From NCBI GenBank assembly GCA_943787795.1, contig CALSNU010000006.1, positions 529,817 to 593,816 of the forward strand: a DNA stretch of 64,000 bases. The letters run 5' to 3'. The first letter of the stretch is position 1; every line of letters begins with the position of its first letter. Position numbers and translations under genes: made by a program. This DNA comes from an uncultured bacterium. Lineage in GTDB: Bacteria; Planctomycetota; UBA1135; GCA-002686595. Shown here piece after piece: positions 47,870-60,062 of the stretch. The notes beneath the pieces were generated by a model. The model was not told the origin of the DNA and did no database searches. It saw nothing but the letters and a program-made list of their open reading frames with translations.

Positions 47870-47918
47870 GACGGATGAGGGTTGTTGGTGTGCGGAGTGA
47901 ACGGCCAGGGTGTCGGGG

Positions 47919-48299
47919 TCACCGGCGGCCCGTGGCGACGAGGGCCTTGAGCGCGGTGAAGTCAGCGAGGGCGATGAGGTTGAGGGCGACCATGATCAGC
48001 GCGGGGACCACCCCGGGCGGGAACATCGTCAGGTTGAAGGCCGCGATCCCGAGGGTGATCGGCAGCTGAACGAGCGCGCCAAGGAAGCGCCAGCGCGGGA
48101 CGAGCAGCATGACACCCGTGACAAGGTGCCCAAGAACGACCCACACAAAAAGGCCCCCGTCCCGCATCAGCCGCCACATCTCGACGCCGAGGTCGTCGCC
48201 GCCCACGGGCGGCTCGATGACCTGCAGCACGTGGTTGGCCGCCGACCCCAGGAGAGGGATCGAGAGACCCGTGCAGGCGAGGGCTCGTACCCGGCTCAT
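47919..48299 (-). CDS. DoxX-like membrane protein
   Basis: Four hydrophobic segments; GVMLLVPRW..LGALVQLPITL. Confidence 0.7.
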   Translation of the reverse strand: MSRVRALACTGLSIPLLGSAANHVLQVIEPPVGGDDLGVEMWRLMRDGGLFVWVVLGHLVTGVMLLVPRWRFLGALVQLPITLGIAAFNLTMFPPGVVPALIMVALNLIALADFTALKALVATGRR

Positions 48300-48366
48300 G
48301 AGCCGACCACCAGGGACGATGAGTCCGGTGCACCGCTTCGGCGCGGCATCGTGAGAGGGTCGCGCG

Positions 48367-48723
48367 TCAAGGCTGAAGGAGCCCCCCGGCCGCGCGGTAG
48401 GCGAGGAACCCGTTCCCCACCATCAACAGGAGCGCAGGGCTCATCTGCAAGAAGGAGTCCCGGACCCGGATCCGAGCGAGCAGCGCGAAGAACATCAGCA
48501 GCGCGAGGCCCCCGGCAGCGAACGGTAAGAGCGCGGGGAGCTGGTAGCTCACCACGAGCCCGAGCCCCCCGAGGATCTCCAGCGACCCCGTCAGCACACG
48601 AAACCTGGCGACGCCAAAGCGCTCGAACTCGGAGGCCATCGCCGTCGGGTGGAGGCACATCCCCCCGTAGCCGAGGAAGACGATCGCGGACACGACCCAG
48701 CAGGCTTGGAGGAAGAGGTCCAT
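48367..48723 (-). CDS. DoxX-like membrane protein
   Basis: ATG 48723; EFERFG...R.LTGSLEILGGLGL, LLM..A...R.RVRD. Confidence 0.8.
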   Translation of the reverse strand: MDLFLQACWVVSAIVFLGYGGMCLHPTAMASEFERFGVARFRVLTGSLEILGGLGLVVSYQLPALLPFAAGGLALLMFFALLARIRVRDSFLQMSPALLLMVGNGFLAYRAAGGLLQP

Positions 48724-49088
48724 CACGGACTGTGGCGTTCGGACGCGAGCGGCCGCTGGATCCGCCTCGACGGGGGATCCGCGACAAATCTCCCAGCCCG
48801 AGGCCAGGTCGGCGCGGCCAGAGGCTTCCAAGACCAGCAGGACCGAGCCCCCCTACCCGGTCTCGCCCCAAGGTCTCGTCAGCTCCCTCCGGCTCCCCTG
48901 ACATCCCCGTCCCCTTTCCGCCCGTTGGCTCCCGCAACCCCCGTGGCACCCCCAGCCGGCCCTCGTGCCTCACGCCGCCCACTCAAGCTGCGCCTGCCCC
49001 CCCAGCAGCGCAGGGTCATCGCCACCGGATCGCGACCGTAGGGGCGAGCGCCACCCCGGCGTTCGACTCCGGTAGAGTGTTCGGCCCC

Positions 49089-50681
49089 ATGTCGCCTGAA
49101 CCGTCCCCCGAGCCCCACGCAGACGCCCAGGCTGACCTCAAAGCCAGGCGCGCCGACGACGACGCCGAGCGCGCCCGCCGCGCGGCTCAGGGCGCCGTCG
49201 CGGACCCGGCAGCGGTTCTGGCCCACGTGGAATGGCTCGAGACGCTCGCGGCCTCGGAGGAGTGCCTGTTCGATGTGGACGAGGCGACGCTCCTTCGCCT
49301 CCGTCAGGCCGCCGGCCGGATCGCCCTGCCCGATCGCCTCACGCGTCGGCGCCTCGCCAAGGCGCGCCGCGGCCAGGAGCGCCGCAAGGTCCGGGAGCAG
49401 GATGACCGCGCCCTTGAAGCCACCAGCAACCGGGCGCTGAAGCGGGCCCTCGCGTTCCCGACGGCGCCGAAGGAGCTGGCCATCACGGACGAACAGCGCG
49501 CCCTGCTGGAGCACCAGGCGCGCGAACGACCCAAGGAGGATCGCGGCCAGCTCAACGAGCCGCGCAGCTGCTACGTCTGCAAGGAGCCGTACACCGCGCT
49601 GCACCACCACTACGACTCCATGTGCGGCAGCTGCGCTGACATCAACTGGCTGAAGCGCACGGCCACGGCCGACCTGCGCGGACGCGTCGCGCTCGTCACC
49701 GGCTCACGGGTCAAGATCGGGTACGAGATCGTCCTGTTCCTGCTCCGCGCCGGCGCGCGGGTCATCGCCACCACCCGCTTCGCCTGCGACGCCGCCCGCC
49801 GGTACGAGTCAGAGCCAGACTTCGCCGATTGGCGCGACCGGCTCGACCTGCGCGCCCTCGACCTGCGCCACACGCCCACCGTGGAGGGGTTCTGCGCCGA
49901 GCTCCTCGAGTCCGAGGCGCGGCTGGACTTCCTGATCCACAACGCCTGTCAGACCGTGCGGCGGCCACCCGATTACTACCGGGACATGGCGGCGCGCGAG
50001 AACCCCGCCGAGCTCCCGGAGCGGCTGCAGGCGCTCCTGGGTGAGCCCACCGCCGAGCGCGCTCTGGCGCTCCACCGGACCCCGAGCAACGTCGCGCAGC
50101 TCAGCCAGATGGATCTCCTGGGTGAGGGCGACCAGGGGCATCTGTTCCCCGAAGGCCTCACCGACGGCGAGGGGCAGCAGCTGGACCTGCGCCCCTCCAA
50201 CTCCTGGCGACTGCAGCTCGACGAGGTGCCGACCGTCGAGATGCTGGAGGTCCAGCTGGTGAACTCCATCGCACCCTTCGTGCTCAACAGCCGCCTCAAG
50301 CCCCTGATGCTCGCGGTGGAGACCCACGACAAGCACATCGTCAACGTCTCGGCGATGGAGGGGCAGTTCAACCGCGCCCTCAAGACCACGCGCCACCCCC
50401 ACACCAACATGGCCAAGGCGGCGCTGAACATGATGACGCGCACCTCCGCCGCGGACTACGTCAAGGACGGCATCCACATGAACAGCGTGGACACCGGCTG
50501 GGTCACCGACGAGGACCAGCTGGAGCGAGCCACCGAGAAGGAGGTGGCCCAGCGCTTCGCCCCGCCCCTGGACTCGGTCGACGGCGCCGCCCGCTGCGTC
50601 GACCCGATCTTTGTGGGCTTCAACACCGGGCACCACTGCTGGGGCCAGTTCCTGAAGGACTACGGCCCGACGGACTGGTAG
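49089..50681 (+). CDS. Extended SDR-family oxidoreductase with N-terminal Cys/His Zn-finger-like segment
   Basis: ATG 49089. CYVCK..YTALHHHYDSMCGSC, VALVTGSRVKIG, LIHNACQT, IVNVSAMEG, HTNMAKAALNM, VDTGW. Confidence 0.88.
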   Translation: MSPEPSPEPHADAQADLKARRADDDAERARRAAQGAVADPAAVLAHVEWLETLAASEECLFDVDEATLLRLRQAAGRIALPDRLTRRRLAKARRGQERRKVREQDDRALEATSNRALKRALAFPTAPKELAITDEQRALLEHQARERPKEDRGQLNEPRSCYVCKEPYTALHHHYDSMCGSCADINWLKRTATADLRGRVALVTGSRVKIGYEIVLFLLRAGARVIATTRFACDAARRYESEPDFADWRDRLDLRALDLRHTPTVEGFCAELLESEARLDFLIHNACQTVRRPPDYYRDMAARENPAELPERLQALLGEPTAERALALHRTPSNVAQLSQMDLLGEGDQGHLFPEGLTDGEGQQLDLRPSNSWRLQLDEVPTVEMLEVQLVNSIAPFVLNSRLKPLMLAVETHDKHIVNVSAMEGQFNRALKTTRHPHTNMAKAALNMMTRTSAADYVKDGIHMNSVDTGWVTDEDQLERATEKEVAQRFAPPLDSVDGAARCVDPIFVGFNTGHHCWGQFLKDYGPTDW

Positions 50682-50706
50682 ACCGGCCGAGCGCCTGCCC
50701 GCCCCG

Positions 50707-50780
50707 CGGCTGGCCCTACGGCTGGCCCCACGGCTGGCCCCACGGCTGGCCCCACGGCTGGCCCTACGGCTGGCCCTACG
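50707..50780. repeat. 12-bp tandem repeat (cggctggcccya) x6
   Basis: Units at 50707 to 50767 in steps of 12. Confidence 0.9.
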
Positions 50781-51180: not shown

Positions 51181-52824
51181 ATGCGCTCCATCTTCACCCT
51201 CGCCGCCGCGCTCCTCGCCCACGGTCTCGCGCTGGCCCAGTGTCCCCTCGAGGTGAAGGGATCGGGCGAAGACCAGCCGTTCCGGGTCACCGCCAGCGCT
51301 ACCGACCAGGTCCTGCTCGTGGACCTCATCCTGGACGATGAGTGGCACGCCTATGCCCGGGACGTCGGCGGCGGCCGCCCCGTGGAGCTCAGCGTCGACG
51401 CCGGCTGTGACTTTGCCGCGGCGGGCAGGGTCGGCCTGCCCGAGACAGAAGGCGCACGGCTGGAAGGCACCGTTCGCCTGCGCCTTCCACTGGAGCGCAC
51501 CGGCGAGGGTGACGAGCTGCGGGCGACCCTCTCGATCCAGGTGTGCGACGCGCTCGAGTGCCTCGTCCCCATGACGCTCACCCTGAGCGGAGAGGTGAAG
51601 CCACTGGGCGTCCTCCTCGTGGTCGCCGAGGCCGACGCTCGAGCCGAGCGCATCGCCGGCTGGCTCGTCGAGCGAGGCTTCGCCGTCGAAATGGCGACCT
51701 ACGCCGACGTGACCCTCGAAGCCTGCGACGCACACGACGTCGTGCTCGCGGACTCCAACGTCTTTCAGGCCCATGGCGTGGACCGCAAGACGATCCAGCG
51801 CTTCCCCCGTACCGCGACCCCCGTCGTGGCGGTGGGCTTCATCGGCACGGAGCTCGTCGAGGCCCACGGGGTGGCGATGACCAGCGGGTACATATGAATC
51901 TGCATGAACCACCAGGGCCACGGGGTGGCCCTCGACCATGCGATCTTCAACACACCCAACGCGGTCTCGTTCCCCGTCTCGGAGACGAAGGAGCGCGGAC
52001 CGAGCCAGGAAGGCCACACCTCGCCCCTCTATCCCGACGGCATGCCGGCCACCTACGGGGTGGTGGACTTCGAGGTCGACCAGCCGGACGGCTGGAACCC
52101 GACCCTGGTCTCCCACGAGGGCTTCTTCACCGACGTTCCCGGGTTCGAGAGCCTGGTCGAGGGCCAGAGCAGCAAGATGCTCGGCAGCCTCGCGCTGGCG
52201 CGGCAGGGCAGCTACTTCTACTGGGGCTACTCCATCGATCCCCAGAGGCTGACCGACCCCGCCGAGGACACCCTCGAGAACGTGGTGCGGTACATGGCGA
52301 CCAAGCGCGGCGAGCGGACGACTCCGTACGTCTGCAAGACTCGTCGGAGCCTCTGGGTCTACCTCGCGCTGAACCGGGAGTCTGGATACCTGCGCGGCAT
52401 CGAGGAGCACTTTCCCGGGTCGGTCCTCGAGGCGTCCCGAGAGGACTACGAGCCCACCCCGGCGGGCCTCGAGGCCTGGCTCGCGGAGAACCTCCCCTAT
52501 GTGTTCAGCGGCAAGGACGCGGCCCACCGCGGTGAGCGCTACAAGACCATCTACGAGGTCGACCTTGACGCCAGGACCCTCGGCACCCCCAACGCCGAGC
52601 GCGCGAGCCTGGAACGCTGGATCGAACTCGCGGCGAGCGACGATCCGAGCAGCGTCGAGCGCGCCGTCACGCTGCTCCGACGCTACGTCCACCCCGATAT
52701 CGCTCCGGAGACATGGGGCGAGGCTCCGCGGTGGTATGCCACCTGGCGGGATCGCCTCGTCTTCGTGGAGTCCGCGGGCTTCTGGTGGATGGAGGATCCG
52801 AGGCTCGCCGCTGTGCCCCGCTGA
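51181..52824 (+). CDS. Probable exported selenoprotein (547 aa, Sec at codon 239): signal peptide, DsbD-N-like domain, UxC motif domain
   Basis: ORFs 51181..51897 and 51904..52824 share a frame and are separated only by TGA 51895-51897 (GYI-TGA-IC). SECIS-like hairpin follows. WHAYA and QVCDALECLVP are DsbD-N-like. Confidence 0.75.
51898..51944 (+). promoter_or_regulatory. Bacterial SECIS-like hairpin directly 3' of the in-frame UGA
   Basis: Lower stem ATC(T)GCATG/CATGCGAT; upper stem AGGGCCAC/GTGGCCCT (51914-51921 / 51925-51932); G-rich apical loop 24 nt from the UGA. Confidence 0.7.
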
Positions 52825-52882
52825 TCGATACAGCTGTTCGACACAGCTGATCGACACCCTGATCGACACCCTGATCGACACC
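52821..52882. repeat. 12-13-bp tandem repeat (ctgatcgacacc) x5 starting on the TGA stop of 51181..52824
   Basis: Units at 52821, 52834, 52847, 52859, 52871. Confidence 0.85.
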
Positions 52883-53038
52883 GCTGAGTGACGTCGCCGA
52901 TGGACCTCCCTGCTGGGTCTCACCGACCGGGCGCGCGGCAAAGCCCACGCCAGGGCGGCACCTGCCCGACCAGGGGCTCATCAGACGCCCGCACCTGCAG
53001 CGCAGGCTCTGGACCGGGTGGTCGCCCTGCCGCCCCGC

Positions 53039-53584: not shown

Positions 53585-55492
53585 GTGCTCTGGCTCCCCA
53601 TGATCGTCCTGACCGCTGGGGTCTACCCCGAAGGGACGACGGAGCTCGCGCAGGAAGAGGGTCGGATCGATCCCGTGGTGATCCGGATCGAATCCGGCGC
53701 CGACCTCGAGGCGGCCGCCCGCCGGGTCCGCCTGAGGCTCTCCCAGCACCCGGGCGCCGACGTGCCGGGCGCCGATATTCCAAGCGCCGACATGCCGAGC
53801 GCCGACATCATCGTCGAGCTCGAGCAAGGCACCTATTCACTCGCGGCCCCCCTGGTCCTCGACGCTCGCGATGGCGGAGGCACGTCGCGCCAGGTGACCT
53901 GGCGCGCGGTGCCAGGCGAGACGGTGACGTTCAGCGGCGCGAACGCGGCGACGCCCTGGCGCGAGGACGAGGACGGGAGCTGGTCCGCGCCAGCCAGCGG
54001 CCCCCTGGTACGGCAGCTCTTCATGGGCGGCGAGCGCCGCCATCGCGCTCGCTGGCCCCGCGAAGGCTGGCTGCGACTGGAGAAAGAAGGCCCGGACAGG
54101 AGGACCTCCTTCCGCTTCCGCTCGGGCGACCTCGCCCCCTGGGAGCGGCGCCCCGCCGCCGGGCTGGCCGGGTCCGAGCTCCTGCTCCTGCACGACTGGT
54201 CCATGAGCCGCGTGGGCGTGGCCTCCATCGACGGGGAGAGCCGCTGGCTTACCGCGACCGACACCATCGGCGGGTACCTTCCCTTCTTCTTCCTGACCAA
54301 CTTCGAGCCCCACCCTCGATACGCGCTGGAGAACGTCGCCCCGGGCTGGAGCCAGCCCGGCGACTGGTGGCACGACGTGGGCGCCGGACGGTTGCGCTAC
54401 CTGCCGATGCCGCGAGAGCAACTGGGAGAGGCGCCCCCCACCGTCCCCGCACTCCAGACCCTGGTCGAGATCAGGGGCACCGAAGAGGCGCCGGTGCGCG
54501 GCCTCGCCTTCGAGGGCATCACCTTCGCCCACACACGGGCCATGTCACCGACCGGCGGGTACGCGGGCATCCAGGCCGCCTTCCATGACCAGCGCGCCGA
54601 CGCGCAGCCCCACCCCGAGCGCCCGTCCCCTGCCGCGGTGCACGTGCGCTTCGCCTGCGGCGTCCGGTTCGCCAACTGCCAGTTCCGCGCCCTCGGCGCC
54701 AGCGCCCTGTGGCTCGCCGAAGGCGTCCAGGGCGCCCAGGTCCAGCGGTGCAACTTCGAGGATGTGGGAGCCAACGGCCTGATGATCGGCACCCCGAAGG
54801 AGCCCGGCGAGGCGGACGTCGAGGGCCTCCTGACCCGCTCGGTCACCTGCGCTGACAGCACCGTGGAGCGCTGCGGCGCCGTCTACATGGGGGCGGTGGG
54901 CATCTGGATCGGGATCGCCCGGGACGTCCATGTCCACCACAACGAGCTCCGCCGCCTCCCCTACACCGGCATCTCCCTCGGCTGGATCTGGAGCCCGCGC
55001 CCCAGCCCGAGCGCAGGGCATGTCATCGAGCACAACCACATCCACCACGTGATGCAGCGGCTCTCGGACGGCGGCGGGATCTACACCATCGGGCGCCACC
55101 CGGACTCCCACCTGCGGCACAACCTGATCCACGACGTCCCCATCAACCTGGGCCGCGCCGGGAGCAACGGCTTCTTCATCGACCAGGGCTCCAGCGAGCT
55201 CACCATCTCGGAAAACGTCGTCCACTCCATCGCGCGCTCCCCCGTGCGCTTCCACATGGCGGGTCCCTGCACCCTCGAGGGCAACACCCTCGTCAGCGCC
55301 GAGTCGGTGGCGACCTTCCGCTACGACAGCTGTGACCCGCAGACGATGAGCCTGGTCAACAATCAGAACTTGACCTCTCCCCCGTGGCGTCCATCGAAGA
55401 CCCCGCCCCTCGAGGTCGGCCCGCGACCGCCAGCGGGCCAAGGCCGCGCCCGTCCAGACCGCCAGGCTGCCCCGACTCCACATCGCCGCTGA
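53585..55492 (+). CDS. Right-handed parallel beta-helix protein (GH141-like carbohydrate-active enzyme)
   Basis: GTG with TAGGCT 6 nt upstream. GTYSL, RQLF..G.R..RARWP, HNEL..LPYTGISLGW, NHIHHVMQ.LSDGGGIYT.G, DQGSS. Confidence 0.8.
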   Translation: MLWLPMIVLTAGVYPEGTTELAQEEGRIDPVVIRIESGADLEAAARRVRLRLSQHPGADVPGADIPSADMPSADIIVELEQGTYSLAAPLVLDARDGGGTSRQVTWRAVPGETVTFSGANAATPWREDEDGSWSAPASGPLVRQLFMGGERRHRARWPREGWLRLEKEGPDRRTSFRFRSGDLAPWERRPAAGLAGSELLLLHDWSMSRVGVASIDGESRWLTATDTIGGYLPFFFLTNFEPHPRYALENVAPGWSQPGDWWHDVGAGRLRYLPMPREQLGEAPPTVPALQTLVEIRGTEEAPVRGLAFEGITFAHTRAMSPTGGYAGIQAAFHDQRADAQPHPERPSPAAVHVRFACGVRFANCQFRALGASALWLAEGVQGAQVQRCNFEDVGANGLMIGTPKEPGEADVEGLLTRSVTCADSTVERCGAVYMGAVGIWIGIARDVHVHHNELRRLPYTGISLGWIWSPRPSPSAGHVIEHNHIHHVMQRLSDGGGIYTIGRHPDSHLRHNLIHDVPINLGRAGSNGFFIDQGSSELTISENVVHSIARSPVRFHMAGPCTLEGNTLVSAESVATFRYDSCDPQTMSLVNNQNLTSPPWRPSKTPPLEVGPRPPAGQGRARPDRQAAPTPHRR

Positions 55493-56743: not shown

Positions 56744-58117
56744 ATGCGCCTCCTCCTGCTCTCCGCCCTCTCCGCCTGCACAGGCGCGCCCGACGTCCCG
56801 CAACCCGCCGAGCGGCCCAACGTGGTCCTCGTCCTCGTCGACGACCTCGGCGCCTTCGATATCGGGTGCTACGGGAACCCCGCGGTCAACACGCCCCGCA
56901 TCGACAGGTTCAGCCGGGAGGCCGTACGCTTCACCGACGGGTACGCCGCCGCGCCCGTCTGCTCCCCCACCCGCGCCTCGATCATGACGGGCAAGTCGCC
57001 GGCGCGGATCCGGATCACCAACCACGCGCCGGACGACGAGCGGTTCTGGCCCGACGATCCGATCCTCGAGCCGGCGCCAATGCTCGACCGGCTCCCCCTT
57101 GAGGAGGTGACCCTCGCCGAGCTCCTCTCGGCCGCCGGCTACGACACGGCCTTCATGGGAAAGTGGCACCTCGCCCCCCAGCGAGTCGACGACGCCAACG
57201 AGTGGTTCCCTGACCGGCAGGGCTTCGACATCAACCTCGGCGGGAACGGCGCCGGCGGTCCCGGGCGGTTCTTCGCGCCCTACCGCTTCCCCAACCTAGA
57301 TTCGCGCGTAGACGGTGAGTACCTGCCGTACCGTCTCGGAGAGGAGGCCGTCGCCTACCTGGAGGATCAGGCTGACGACGACGACCCGTTCTTTCTCGCG
57401 CTCTGGCACTACACCGTGCACTGGCCGATCGAGGCGCCGGAGGAGCTCGTCGAGAGCTACACCGCGCGCGGCGACCAGCCTGGTATCAAGATGCCCGAAT
57501 ACGCCGCGATGACCGAGGCCCTCGACCAGGTCTTCGGGAGGGTCCTCGACGCCCTCGAGCGCACGGGACAGGCAGAGGACACCGTGGTCATCTTCACCTC
57601 CGACAACGGAGCCCTGCACAGCGTCGCCGATCTCGGGCCCCTGCGGAAGGCGAAGGGCTACCTCTACGAGGGCGGACTCCGGGTGCCGTTCATGGTCCGC
57701 TGGCCCGGCGTCACCGAGGCTGGCCGCGTGGACTCCACCCCGGTCATCTCCACGGACCTCTTTCCCACGATCCTCACGGCCTGCGGCGTCGCGCTGCCCG
57801 AGGACTACTGCGGTGATGGCGCTGACCTTGGAGGAGCCTTGAAAGGAGGCTCTCTCGACCGCGCGGCCATTCACTTCCACTACCCCAACTACGCCTGGCA
57901 CCGGTCCAACCGGCTCGGCGGCGCGATCCGAGCGGGCCGGCACAAGCTCATCGAGCGCTTCGACGACGGGAGCCTGGAGCTCTTCGACCTCCAGGAGGAC
58001 CTGGGAGAGGAGATCAACCTCGCCGCGCAGCAGCCCGAGCTGGCCGAGGACCTCCGGCGTCAGCTCGATGACTGGCGAGAGCGCGTCGACGCGGCCATGC
58101 CTGTCCGGGTTCGCTGA
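56744..58117 (+). CDS. Formylglycine-dependent sulfatase (S1), lipoprotein
   Basis: LSAC lipobox; PNVV...DDLG, CSPTRASIMTG, GKWHL, HWP, SDNG, KGYLYEGG.RVP. Confidence 0.95.
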   Translation: MRLLLLSALSACTGAPDVPQPAERPNVVLVLVDDLGAFDIGCYGNPAVNTPRIDRFSREAVRFTDGYAAAPVCSPTRASIMTGKSPARIRITNHAPDDERFWPDDPILEPAPMLDRLPLEEVTLAELLSAAGYDTAFMGKWHLAPQRVDDANEWFPDRQGFDINLGGNGAGGPGRFFAPYRFPNLDSRVDGEYLPYRLGEEAVAYLEDQADDDDPFFLALWHYTVHWPIEAPEELVESYTARGDQPGIKMPEYAAMTEALDQVFGRVLDALERTGQAEDTVVIFTSDNGALHSVADLGPLRKAKGYLYEGGLRVPFMVRWPGVTEAGRVDSTPVISTDLFPTILTACGVALPEDYCGDGADLGGALKGGSLDRAAIHFHYPNYAWHRSNRLGGAIRAGRHKLIERFDDGSLELFDLQEDLGEEINLAAQQPELAEDLRRQLDDWRERVDAAMPVRVR

Positions 58118-58760: not shown

Positions 58761-60062
58761 TTGACCCTCCAAGTTACGGCGCCCCCGTTCTCCGTCATCG
58801 CGGAGGCAGGGGCTTCCGCGCAGCCCTCCATCGACACGGGCACGACCGCGTGGATGCTCGTGAGCACCGCGCTGGTGCTGCTGACGTTCCCCGGACTCGC
58901 CATGTTCTACGGCGGGCTGGTGCGGACCAAGAACGTCCTCGGGACGATGATGCACAGCTTCGCCGCGATGGCGATCATCGGCGTGCTCTGGGTCGCCGTC
59001 GGCTACGCCATCTCCTTCGGCGACAGCGTCTCCCTCGGCGGCAGCGGCTCCCTTGGCGGCAGCGTCGGCGGCATCTTCGGCTGGGACTCGAGCAAGGTCC
59101 TCCTGGCGGGGATTGACCAGACCATCATGGAGGGCGGGATTCCCGAGTACGTCTTCGCGATGTTCCAAGGGAAGTTCGCCATCATCACGCCAGCCCTGAT
59201 CGCGGGCGCCTTCGCTGAACGCGTGCGCTTTCTCGGCTACTGTGTGTTCATCGCGCTCTGGAGCCTGCTGATCTACAACCCGCTGGCCCACATCATCTGG
59301 GGCGGCGGCTTCCTGACCGGGGACGCCATCGACTTCGCCGGCGGCACCGTGATCCACATCTCCGCAGGCGTCGCGGGCCTCGTCGCGGCCCTCTACCTCG
59401 GCGCGCGGCGCGGGTTCCCTAGGGTCGCGATGCACCCCAACAACCTCGTCATGACCATGATGGGAGCTGGCCTGCTGTGGGTGGGCTGGTTTGGGTTCAA
59501 CGCGGGCAGCTCGGTCGAGAGCGGGCTGAAGACGGCGCAAGCCCTCACGGCCACGCAGGCGGCGGCCGCGGCCGGCGCGCTCGGGTGGATGATCATCGAG
59601 GGCTGGAGGCACGGCAAGGCCACCAGCCTGGGGCTCGTCTCCGGCATCCTGGCCGGACTCGTCGCGGTCACGCCCGCGGCCGGGGACGTCCTCCCCGTGG
59701 GGGCCATGGCCCTCGGCCTCATGGCCTCGGCGGCCTGCTACGGTGCGATCGCGGTCAAGAACCGCCTCGGCTACGACGACACCCTCGACGTCTTCGGGAT
59801 CCACGGCGTCGGCGGCATCGTCGGGGCCCTCGGCCTCACCGCCTTTCTGCGCGACGTCCCCGAGGGCGGGGTCTGGGCCCAGTTCGCGCACCAGGTCACA
59901 GGCGTCCTGGTGGCCGGCAGCGCCTCCGCAATCGGGACCTTGGTCCTCCTCGTCCTCGTGGAGCGCACCGTCGGACTCCGGCTCGAGGAGCGCGGCGAGC
60001 TGGCAGGCATGGACCACAGCATGCACGGCGAGCACGGCTACGGCCTGCTGAACCCCAACTGA
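58761..60062 (+). CDS. amtB: Ammonium transporter (start uncertain)
   Basis: PGLAMFYGGLVR.KN, FQGKFAIITPAL, DFAGGTVIH, LWVGWFGFNAGS, DDTLDVFGIHG (twin His intact). Confidence 0.95.
   Translation: MTLQVTAPPFSVIAEAGASAQPSIDTGTTAWMLVSTALVLLTFPGLAMFYGGLVRTKNVLGTMMHSFAAMAIIGVLWVAVGYAISFGDSVSLGGSGSLGGSVGGIFGWDSSKVLLAGIDQTIMEGGIPEYVFAMFQGKFAIITPALIAGAFAERVRFLGYCVFIALWSLLIYNPLAHIIWGGGFLTGDAIDFAGGTVIHISAGVAGLVAALYLGARRGFPRVAMHPNNLVMTMMGAGLLWVGWFGFNAGSSVESGLKTAQALTATQAAAAAGALGWMIIEGWRHGKATSLGLVSGILAGLVAVTPAAGDVLPVGAMALGLMASAACYGAIAVKNRLGYDDTLDVFGIHGVGGIVGALGLTAFLRDVPEGGVWAQFAHQVTGVLVAGSASAIGTLVLLVLVERTVGLRLEERGELAGMDHSMHGEHGYGLLNPN

Follow-up and report, generated by a model that had tools for sequence, protein, structure and literature searches.

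Among the bacterial selenoproteins described so far, the exported thioredoxin-fold proteins with UxxC or UGC centers (the DsbA-, DsbG-, and TlpA-like selenoproteins of the available part of a 2026 review, PMC13188914) carry selenocysteine (Sec, U) near a cysteine, commonly have Cys homologues, and are affected by split annotation. Within the available part of Table 1 of this review, UxC centers occur in just two families, one thioredoxin-like and one of Cu/Zn efflux transporters, and the sole entry with an amidotransferase fold is a glutamine amidotransferase (GATase)-fold selenoprotein with a GxUxG motif, which is also contained in the available part of the deep-Sep paper (PMC12013277). The gene addressed here is located at positions 51181–52824 of a 64,000-nt window (the whole stretch of DNA analyzed) on contig CALSNU010000006.1 of an uncultured member of the Planctomycetota. 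Coordinates given below are positions in this window, residue numbers refer to the 547-residue read-through protein, and all features of the gene lie on the + strand. The region represents a single gene, the internal TGA of which almost certainly encodes selenocysteine, and comparison of the sequence with those of its relatives leaves little doubt that a true selenoprotein is encoded. Recoding of the UGA follows the standard bacterial mechanism; new are the family to which the protein belongs and the scaffold on which this family is built. The encoded protein shares with the exported thioredoxin-fold selenoproteins the proximity of Sec to Cys, the common Cys homologues, the split annotation and, probably, a function in envelope thiol/selenol redox chemistry. 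In contrast to them, it has a predicted non-thioredoxin fold and a U-x-C instead of a U-x-x-C spacing, and it matches none of their NCBIfam or Pfam models.

A first-pass annotation, made from the letters of the sequence only, had placed the protein outside the classic selenoprotein families, and the searches performed here agree with this placement. NCBIfam release 20.0 contained no family matching the window protein (E ≤ 1) or ten of its relatives (E ≤ 0.1), the GOS_B, GOS_C, and DG/DW/DF selenoprotein models being likewise without a match at these thresholds, and no Pfam model was found for the family core in the window protein and the relatives scanned. No family of the same architecture was present in the greater part of Table 1 of PMC13188914, none of the nine new families in the available part of PMC12013277 matched, and the available part of PMC4807772 does not describe the family. 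A single Planctomycete Sec candidate in Table S9 of the latter publication, labeled 'hypothetical' and having a Cys homologue in Rhodopirellula, may be a member of the family. The LULAxC-motif protein TsoA (NF045695) bears only a superficial likeness to the W-L-U-L-C-L motif of some paralogues of the window protein; its Cys spacing differs, and no NCBIfam match was obtained. Judged by its sequence, the protein belongs to a large, uncharacterized bacterial family featuring a C/U-x-C center.

The gene consists of two open reading frames (ORFs) in the same frame, ORF 1 (51181–51897; 238 aa, ending ...MTSGYI-TGA) and ORF 2 (51904–52824; 306 aa, starting with MNHQGH). Between the last sense codon of ORF 1 and the start of ORF 2, there is nothing but the TGA (51895–51897), ATC, and TGC. 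Reading of this UGA as selenocysteine (U239) yields a product of 547 residues (...MTSGYI-U-I-C-MNHQGHG...), encoded by 547 codons and followed by the true stop codon, TGA, at 52822–52824. The TGC codon (51901–51903) specifies Cys241, the putative partner of U239 in the U-x-C motif, which is invariant in an alignment of 21 sequences (A1) and in an alignment of Cys forms (A3). The GC contents at third codon positions (0.88 and 0.91 in halves 1 and 2, respectively) and at second codon positions (0.47 and 0.48) resemble those of the neighboring sulfatase gene in this genome of 68–70% GC, which indicates a genuine coding pattern in both halves. The proposal of one 547-residue gene interrupted by a single TGA, put forward in the first-pass annotation, was confirmed by the sequence and by the orthologues described below. 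Its further claim that gene callers would split the gene also held, since the read-through protein, used as the query of a word-indexed protein search, gave 176 matches, the best 120 of which were all 301–319 aa long and covered the C-terminal 55% only, so that the gene appears to be cut at the same place everywhere.

To determine the conservation of the TGA, 401 Planctomycetota genomes were searched in six frames, and matches were obtained in 39 of them. Each of the nine full-length matches (50–100% identity, own genome included) possessed exactly one in-frame TGA, and the orthologues at 50–88% identity aligned over residues 1–547. A single in-frame TGA was also present in most of the paralogues with 24–35% identity recovered in this search. 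In all 28 Planctomycetota loci extracted, the TGA was embedded in the same U-x-C-[LM] motif, with the variants GYIUICM, DWLULCL, HHGULCL, GSGUTCL, and PYTUQCL including those of paralogues of only 24–30% identity. Locus L021 was left out of the gene models because of its disrupted upstream frame, and 1 of the remaining 27 models was truncated by a contig end. The 26 complete models terminated with TGA (14), TAG (10), or TAA (2), whereas the internal codon was always TGA. A single-protein query against genome contigs gave four loci, three of them duplicating loci of the 401-genome search. In alignment A1, protein conservation was continuous across the TGA column, and the invariant columns comprised L145, U239, C241, H253, P259, E323, G328, K332, R341, G349, N367, R388, D461, R501, Y502, and G533.

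A profile built from A1 was furthermore compared with 1.84 billion representative proteins, resulting in 1,996 matches at E ≤ 0.001 and 417 at E ≤ 1e-30. Aligned to the profile were 154 proteins (the top 150 listed and four from the word-indexed search), 104 of which had over 20 residues ahead of the Sec column and were considered full-length. The Sec column of these 104 relatives was occupied by Cys in 98 cases, by Ser in three, and by Arg, Glu, and Gly in one case each. Approximately 48 further aligned proteins began a few residues past the Sec column (M-C-L..., M-D..., M-R...), which is what miscalled Sec forms look like. Homologues with either TGA (28/28 loci) or Cys (98/104) at codon 239 and with continuity across it, which the first-pass annotation had asked to look for, were recovered. 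When metagenomes were searched with the Cys-form alignment, 558 relatives were confirmed and 79 loci retained; 78 of these were scanned for the motif (L125 omitted), and 14 were dropped as having no site or several. The codon in the 64 single-site metagenome loci was TGA in 26, TGC in 24, and TGT in 14 cases.

The exchange between Sec and Cys was followed in a tree computed with FastTree from 169 rows (42 Sec and 127 Cys), which excluded L016 (truncated), L125, and all rows with fewer than 60 residues ahead of the site or 250 behind it. Nine Sec/Cys changes were needed in this tree, at least seven of them being forced by well-supported branches, compared to a mean of 37.7 for shuffled labels; the count is approximate, as it derives from a quick tree in which a long-branch join was flagged. 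All nine members of the window's clade were Sec forms. The source annotations of the relatives read 'hypothetical protein' or 'protein-disulfide reductase DsbD domain-containing protein', and in a language-model look-up, one Cys form fell among unnamed Bacteroidota and Planctomycetota clusters. The window's own genome contained one family member only. Genome G119 encoded three (L011/L040, L047, and L059), with an in-frame TGA in each, and two of the three were found near DDE transposase genes.

Directly downstream of the UGA, a hairpin resembling a selenocysteine insertion sequence (SECIS) was located at 51914–51932 (AGGGCCAC-GGG-GTGGCCCT), featuring an 8-bp stem and a GGG loop that begins 24 nt after the UGA; its assignment is based on its fold, covariation, and specificity for Sec forms. 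A 66-nt segment folded with −21 kcal/mol (z = −2.1 versus shuffles). Covariation was assessed in an ungapped alignment of the UGA plus 45 nt from 27 loci, which revealed a conserved 7-bp stem (columns 20–26 with 32–38) around a CGGGN loop. In this upper stem, 70.9% of the cells were paired versus 59.2% in shuffles, the observed value being reached in 0 of 500 shuffles, and slid controls gave stem pairings of 24–49%. Two-sided changes occurred in five of the seven stem pairs; columns 23/35, for example, were CG in 11 and GC in 9 loci. The encoded residues differ with the compensatory changes (G-H-G-L-A versus A-H-G-M-R versus A-V-V-L-R), indicating that the stem is maintained at the protein's expense. 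In L026, L027, L032, and L033, the stem register was shifted by one and the loop was CGUGCU. A lower stem (ATCTGCATG/CATGCGAT) was also evaluated and rejected, because 63.5% of its cells were paired versus 61.7% in shuffles and 49 of 500 shuffles reached the observed score. The first-pass annotation had described a two-stem hairpin, of which the upper stem, being conserved and covarying, was retained, and the lower one, lacking covariation support, was not.

The hairpin was absent from the Cys forms of the family. Mean fold energies of nucleotides 15–44 amounted to −11.3 kcal/mol in the Sec forms from genomes (n = 26) and −10.5 kcal/mol in those from metagenomes (n = 21), compared to −4.1 kcal/mol in the Cys forms (n = 34), with z values versus shuffles of −1.7, −1.15, and −0.22, respectively. 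Contiguous stems of at least 5 bp were present in 22/26, 9/21, and 2/34 sequences of the three sets. The usual loop letters were CGGG or CGGT in both Sec sets and TCAC or TCAT in the Cys forms. The hairpin is accordingly an RNA-level feature specific to the TGA-bearing genes, and its covariation, a check named in the first-pass annotation, was observed in the upper stem.

The genome harboring the window (4.71 Mb, eight contigs, 84.9% complete) encodes the machinery for Sec incorporation, namely selA (400.9 bits), selB (SelB winged-helix domain in a 677-codon frame), selD (327 bits), and selC as one tRNA-Sec with the anticodon tca, all four of which had been named as a check at the outset. The match to selD contains one in-frame TGA, suggesting that SelD is probably a selenoprotein in the same organism. 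The selA and selD genes adjoin each other outside the window (G000:C5:184772-187201). The stretch was also found in marine metagenomes. DNA contigs of two studies besides the probable source cover the full 1,801 bases and differ only at positions 51732 and 52413, and a 425-nt contig from a metatranscriptome library covers 51814–52238, bridges the TGA, and shows one difference, at 51850. As the TGA is unchanged in the independent DNA contigs and in the RNA-library contig, an assembly error is excluded, which settles another point that the first-pass annotation had left to be verified. Transcription across the ORF junction is suggested by the RNA-library contig.

Regarding the architecture of the protein, ORF 1 starts with a putative signal peptide (MRSIFTLAAALLAHGLALA; residues 1–19, 51181–51237), as deduced from the sequence, with probable cleavage after A-L-A, whereas none was recognized on ORF 2. 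The N-termini in the gene models of 27 relatives are similarly hydrophobic, and the protein is predicted to be exported. The AlphaFold2 (AF2) model of the whole protein reached a mean predicted local distance difference test (pLDDT) value of 87.7 and a predicted template modeling score of 0.83. Residues 31–134 (51271–51582) were assigned to a DsbD-N-like, immunoglobulin-like, putative redox domain, based on Pfam PF11412 (DsbD_N; E = 7.6e-6, 26.4 bits on the first ORF), Foldseek (6dps with TMt 0.68 and 5nhi with TMt 0.72), and VIA-align, for which the ScsB N-terminal domain 6c29_A (Z 12.5) was the best match, followed by 1vrs_B (Z 11.5). Several relatives scored 30–46 bits for DsbD_N. The resemblance of the N-terminus to DsbD-N, pointed out in the first-pass annotation, is corroborated by the fold matches and, with a borderline score, by Pfam. 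The domain contains a Cys122-x4-Cys127 pair (C-D-A-L-E-C; 51544–51561), and both cysteines of the C-D-A-L-E-C-x-x-P segment are kept in all nine orthologues of A1. The fold and the predicted export are shared with the N-terminal domains of DsbD and ScsB, and the conserved C-x4-C-x-P cysteine pair may correspond to the redox pair of DsbD. Unlike in DsbD, the DsbD-N domain of the window protein is not accompanied by the DsbD transmembrane domain and is joined to an unrelated, putatively catalytic module.

This module, the middle domain (residues 138–377, 51592–52311), carries the UxC center and was modeled as an alpha/beta domain resembling class-I glutamine amidotransferases and ThuA-like proteins. 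VIA-align matched TrpG 1i7q_B with Z 13.8 over model residues 142–375 (root-mean-square deviation 3.0, 177 residues aligned), ThuA-like 1t0b_G with Z 13.4, and the Planctomyces GATase1-like 3rht_A with Z 12.1. With ThuA-like 1t0b, GATase1-like 3rht (Planctomyces limnophilus), and STM3548 2gk3, the domain shares the alpha/beta fold over residues 138–377 (Z 12.1–13.8), and a language-model search gave a weak lead to ThuA clusters (score 0.83). Unlike those proteins, the window protein has no Pfam match to GATase or ThuA, nor to peptidase C26, at E ≤ 1, and is extended by a further domain of 170 residues. The segment following strand 215–218, at which the nucleophile elbow was assigned from secondary structure, reads G-F-I-G in the orthologues and contains no conserved Cys in the 21 A1 sequences. 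The GxUxG of the known GATase-fold selenoprotein is presumably the canonical G-x-C-x-G nucleophile-elbow motif; the elbow of the window protein, in contrast, has neither Cys nor Sec, and no NCBIfam match was found at E ≤ 1. U239-x-C241 is followed by A-H-G and then by the invariant H253. According to the model, the middle domain is glutamine-amidotransferase-like without the canonical nucleophile, and the UxC is situated on this domain and not on a thioredoxin fold, which corrects the first-pass annotation.

The C-terminal, mostly helical domain (residues 378–547, 52312–52821) includes the invariant R388, D461, R501, and Y502. Its AF2 model, calculated for the domain alone, reached a pLDDT of 95.2, and the best match among 48,161 PDB representatives had a Z of only 3.2, which is no proof of a new fold. 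From the model, the 170-residue domain may represent one. C182 (51724–51726) and C385 (52333–52335) are conserved in all nine clade orthologues and not in the paralogues, and could form a clade-specific disulfide or provide an extra relay step.

Domain fusions within the family were examined by Pfam scans. A C-terminal DsbD_N domain was detected in 11 of the 20 Cys forms scanned; three of these 11 (P0157, P0194, and P0211) are additionally fused to an AhpC/TSA-redoxin/thioredoxin module, which was also present in P0216 without a DsbD_N match and is accompanied by DUF4369 in P0157 and P0194. In the Planctomycetota, members of the window's clade carry DsbD_N at the N-terminus and the paralogues L025, L026, L027, L032, and L033 at the C-terminus; others lack it. 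The placement of DsbD-N in the clade as compared to the five paralogues is, by Pfam assignment, a domain-order permutation within one family. That the domain through which electrons enter the DsbD pathway has been fused repeatedly, and in either order, argues most strongly for a redox enzyme that would be recycled by this pathway. The genome itself encodes one protein of 764 aa in which DsbD_N and DsbD_TM domains are combined.

Based on these findings, we propose the following mechanism. The UGA of codon 239 is most likely decoded by SelA, SelB, SelD, and tRNA-Sec, guided by the hairpin at 51914–51932. In the cell envelope, the selenolate of U239, in a Sec239-x-Cys241 center placed beside the invariant His253 and Glu323, would attack an oxidized substrate, and C241 would resolve the adduct to form a selenenyl-sulfide. 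The latter would be reduced by the protein's own DsbD-N domain, which in turn would be recharged by a membrane protein of the DsbD/ScsB type at the expense of cytoplasmic reducing power. An internal relay from the DsbD-N cysteine pair to the UxC, already postulated in the first-pass annotation, agrees with the domain fusions; the parts of this scheme that we infer are the export, the relay, and the direction in which electrons flow. It is the best-supported reading, and we hold it with moderate confidence. More tentatively, and at somewhat less than an even chance, the family may constitute a terminal branch, not described so far, of the DsbD/ScsB pathway for reduction in the envelope, that is, a non-thioredoxin reductase with a C/U-x-C center on a GATase-like scaffold, a new-fold substrate-binding domain, an electron-entry module of its own in the form of DsbD-N, and at least seven Cys/Sec switches in its history.

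The family offers a concrete candidate for an envelope reductase of a new kind, both in marine Planctomycetota and, with respect to the Cys forms, in Bacteroidota. Its putative active selenol is placed on a scaffold for which no link to thiol/selenol redox chemistry had been made before, and this scaffold is joined to the DsbD electron-entry domain as well as to a confidently predicted domain for which no solved relative was found. The prokaryotic selenoproteome gains a large family (1,996 clusters at 50% identity, with Sec forms accounting for approximately one-third of the best-scoring ones), which is systematically annotated as two 'hypothetical proteins' in genomes and metagenomes.

Several observations weigh against the selenoprotein assignment or against the proposed reductase relay. 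Part of the hairpin conservation stems from the conserved A-H-G codons, and, since the relatives are not independent of each other, the shuffle counts and rank-test p-values overstate the significance of the stem. An Rfam search of 51800–52050 returned no match at E ≤ 10, and the RNA-library contig and the probable source sample belong to one study, so DNA carry-over is possible. Regarding the N-terminal domain, the DsbD_N score is borderline (26.4 bits, or 24.3 on the read-through protein, versus a cut-off of 25), and a PDB sequence search with this domain yielded no DsbD, the only hits being chance ankyrin-repeat matches at E ≥ 0.15. U239 is off the canonical amidotransferase nucleophile position, as U239-x-C241 follows approximately 20 residues past the elbow. 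Cys is missing from the site in six of the 104 full-length relatives, which implies that some members function without a U/C-x-C center or are inactive. Both C-x-C residues are lost (e.g., LSLDL or DRQSL) in six full-length relatives (P0127, P0134, P0173, P0196, P0246, and P0268), which may be redox-inactive paralogues. Finally, no recurring partner gene emerged when 13 ORFs of the window and 169 ORFs flanking the loci of 20 relatives were scanned with Pfam.

Assuming a selenoprotein, the conserved center may alternatively serve metals. U239-x-C241 together with His247 and His253 would then form a soft-metal site (for Cu(I), Hg(II), or similar) for metal binding or detoxification in the envelope, with the DsbD-N/ScsB-like domain keeping the site reduced. 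His253 is invariant and His247 nearly invariant in the Sec forms, whereas position 247 is often occupied by Tyr, Phe, or Leu in the Cys forms. The best structural match of the N-terminal domain, the ScsB N-terminal domain (6c29_A, Z 12.5), would suit this explanation, ScsB being part of a copper-tolerance system. Likewise, the UxC entries in the available part of Table 1 of PMC13188914 include the Cu/Zn efflux transporter family, and the available text of that review ties several recent selenoproteins to metal resistance. However, no recurring copper or mercury resistance genes were observed beside the 20 loci scanned, only one paralogue adjoining an RND (resistance-nodulation-division) efflux pair, and the TlpA-like thioredoxin fusions suit an electron relay at least as well. 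A metal-binding function is regarded as unlikely.

Considerably less probable is a selenoprotein hydrolase, in which U239 would act as the nucleophile with His253 and Glu323 in a re-invented triad of the Cys-His-Glu type within the old amidotransferase cleft, cleaving an amide, thioester, or similar bond. The class-I amidotransferase fold (Z 12–14), the invariance of U/C239, His253, and Glu323, and the GxUxG selenoprotein of GATase fold in the available parts of PMC13188914 and PMC12013277 all speak in favor of this possibility. A hydrolase, however, has no need of Cys241, which is as invariant as residue 239, and the repeated fusions to DsbD-N and thioredoxin-fold modules have no role in hydrolysis; moreover, the protein gave no Pfam match to GATase, ThuA, or peptidase C26 at E ≤ 1. 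We consider this function very unlikely. The interpretation of the TGA as an ordinary stop, implying two genes, a nonsense-mutated pseudogene, or an assembly error in one frame, could appeal to TGA being the commonest stop in GC-rich genomes and to the calling of the 306-aa piece as a separate protein in numerous assemblies (the best 120 of 176 matches, 301–319 aa), but it is highly improbable and already contradicted by the comparative sequence data, because TGA occupies the site in 28 genome and 26 metagenome loci and Cys in 98 of the 104 full-length relatives, protein conservation runs across the TGA, the called 'starts' of the fragments are merely the first Met past it, the hairpin is specific to TGA forms, and independent assemblies agree on the TGA.

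The neighborhood of the reductase candidate comprises a short-chain dehydrogenase upstream (within 47910–50681) and, downstream, a right-handed beta-helix protein (53585–55492), a sulfatase (56744–58117), and an ammonium transporter (58761–60062). Sulfatases were also observed near the orthologues L043 and L044. Sporadic neighbors in the loci scanned were sulfatases, extracytoplasmic function (ECF) sigma factors, HEAT-repeat proteins, and fusions of kinases with formylglycine-generating enzyme (FGE) domains. Two tandem repeats flank the gene. One, with a 12-nt unit (GCCCCACGGCTG) in 6.7 copies, occupies positions 50701–50780, approximately 400 nt upstream of the gene, and the other, with a 13-nt unit (GCTGATCGACACA) in 5.4 copies, extends over 52820–52887 and begins at the stop codon.

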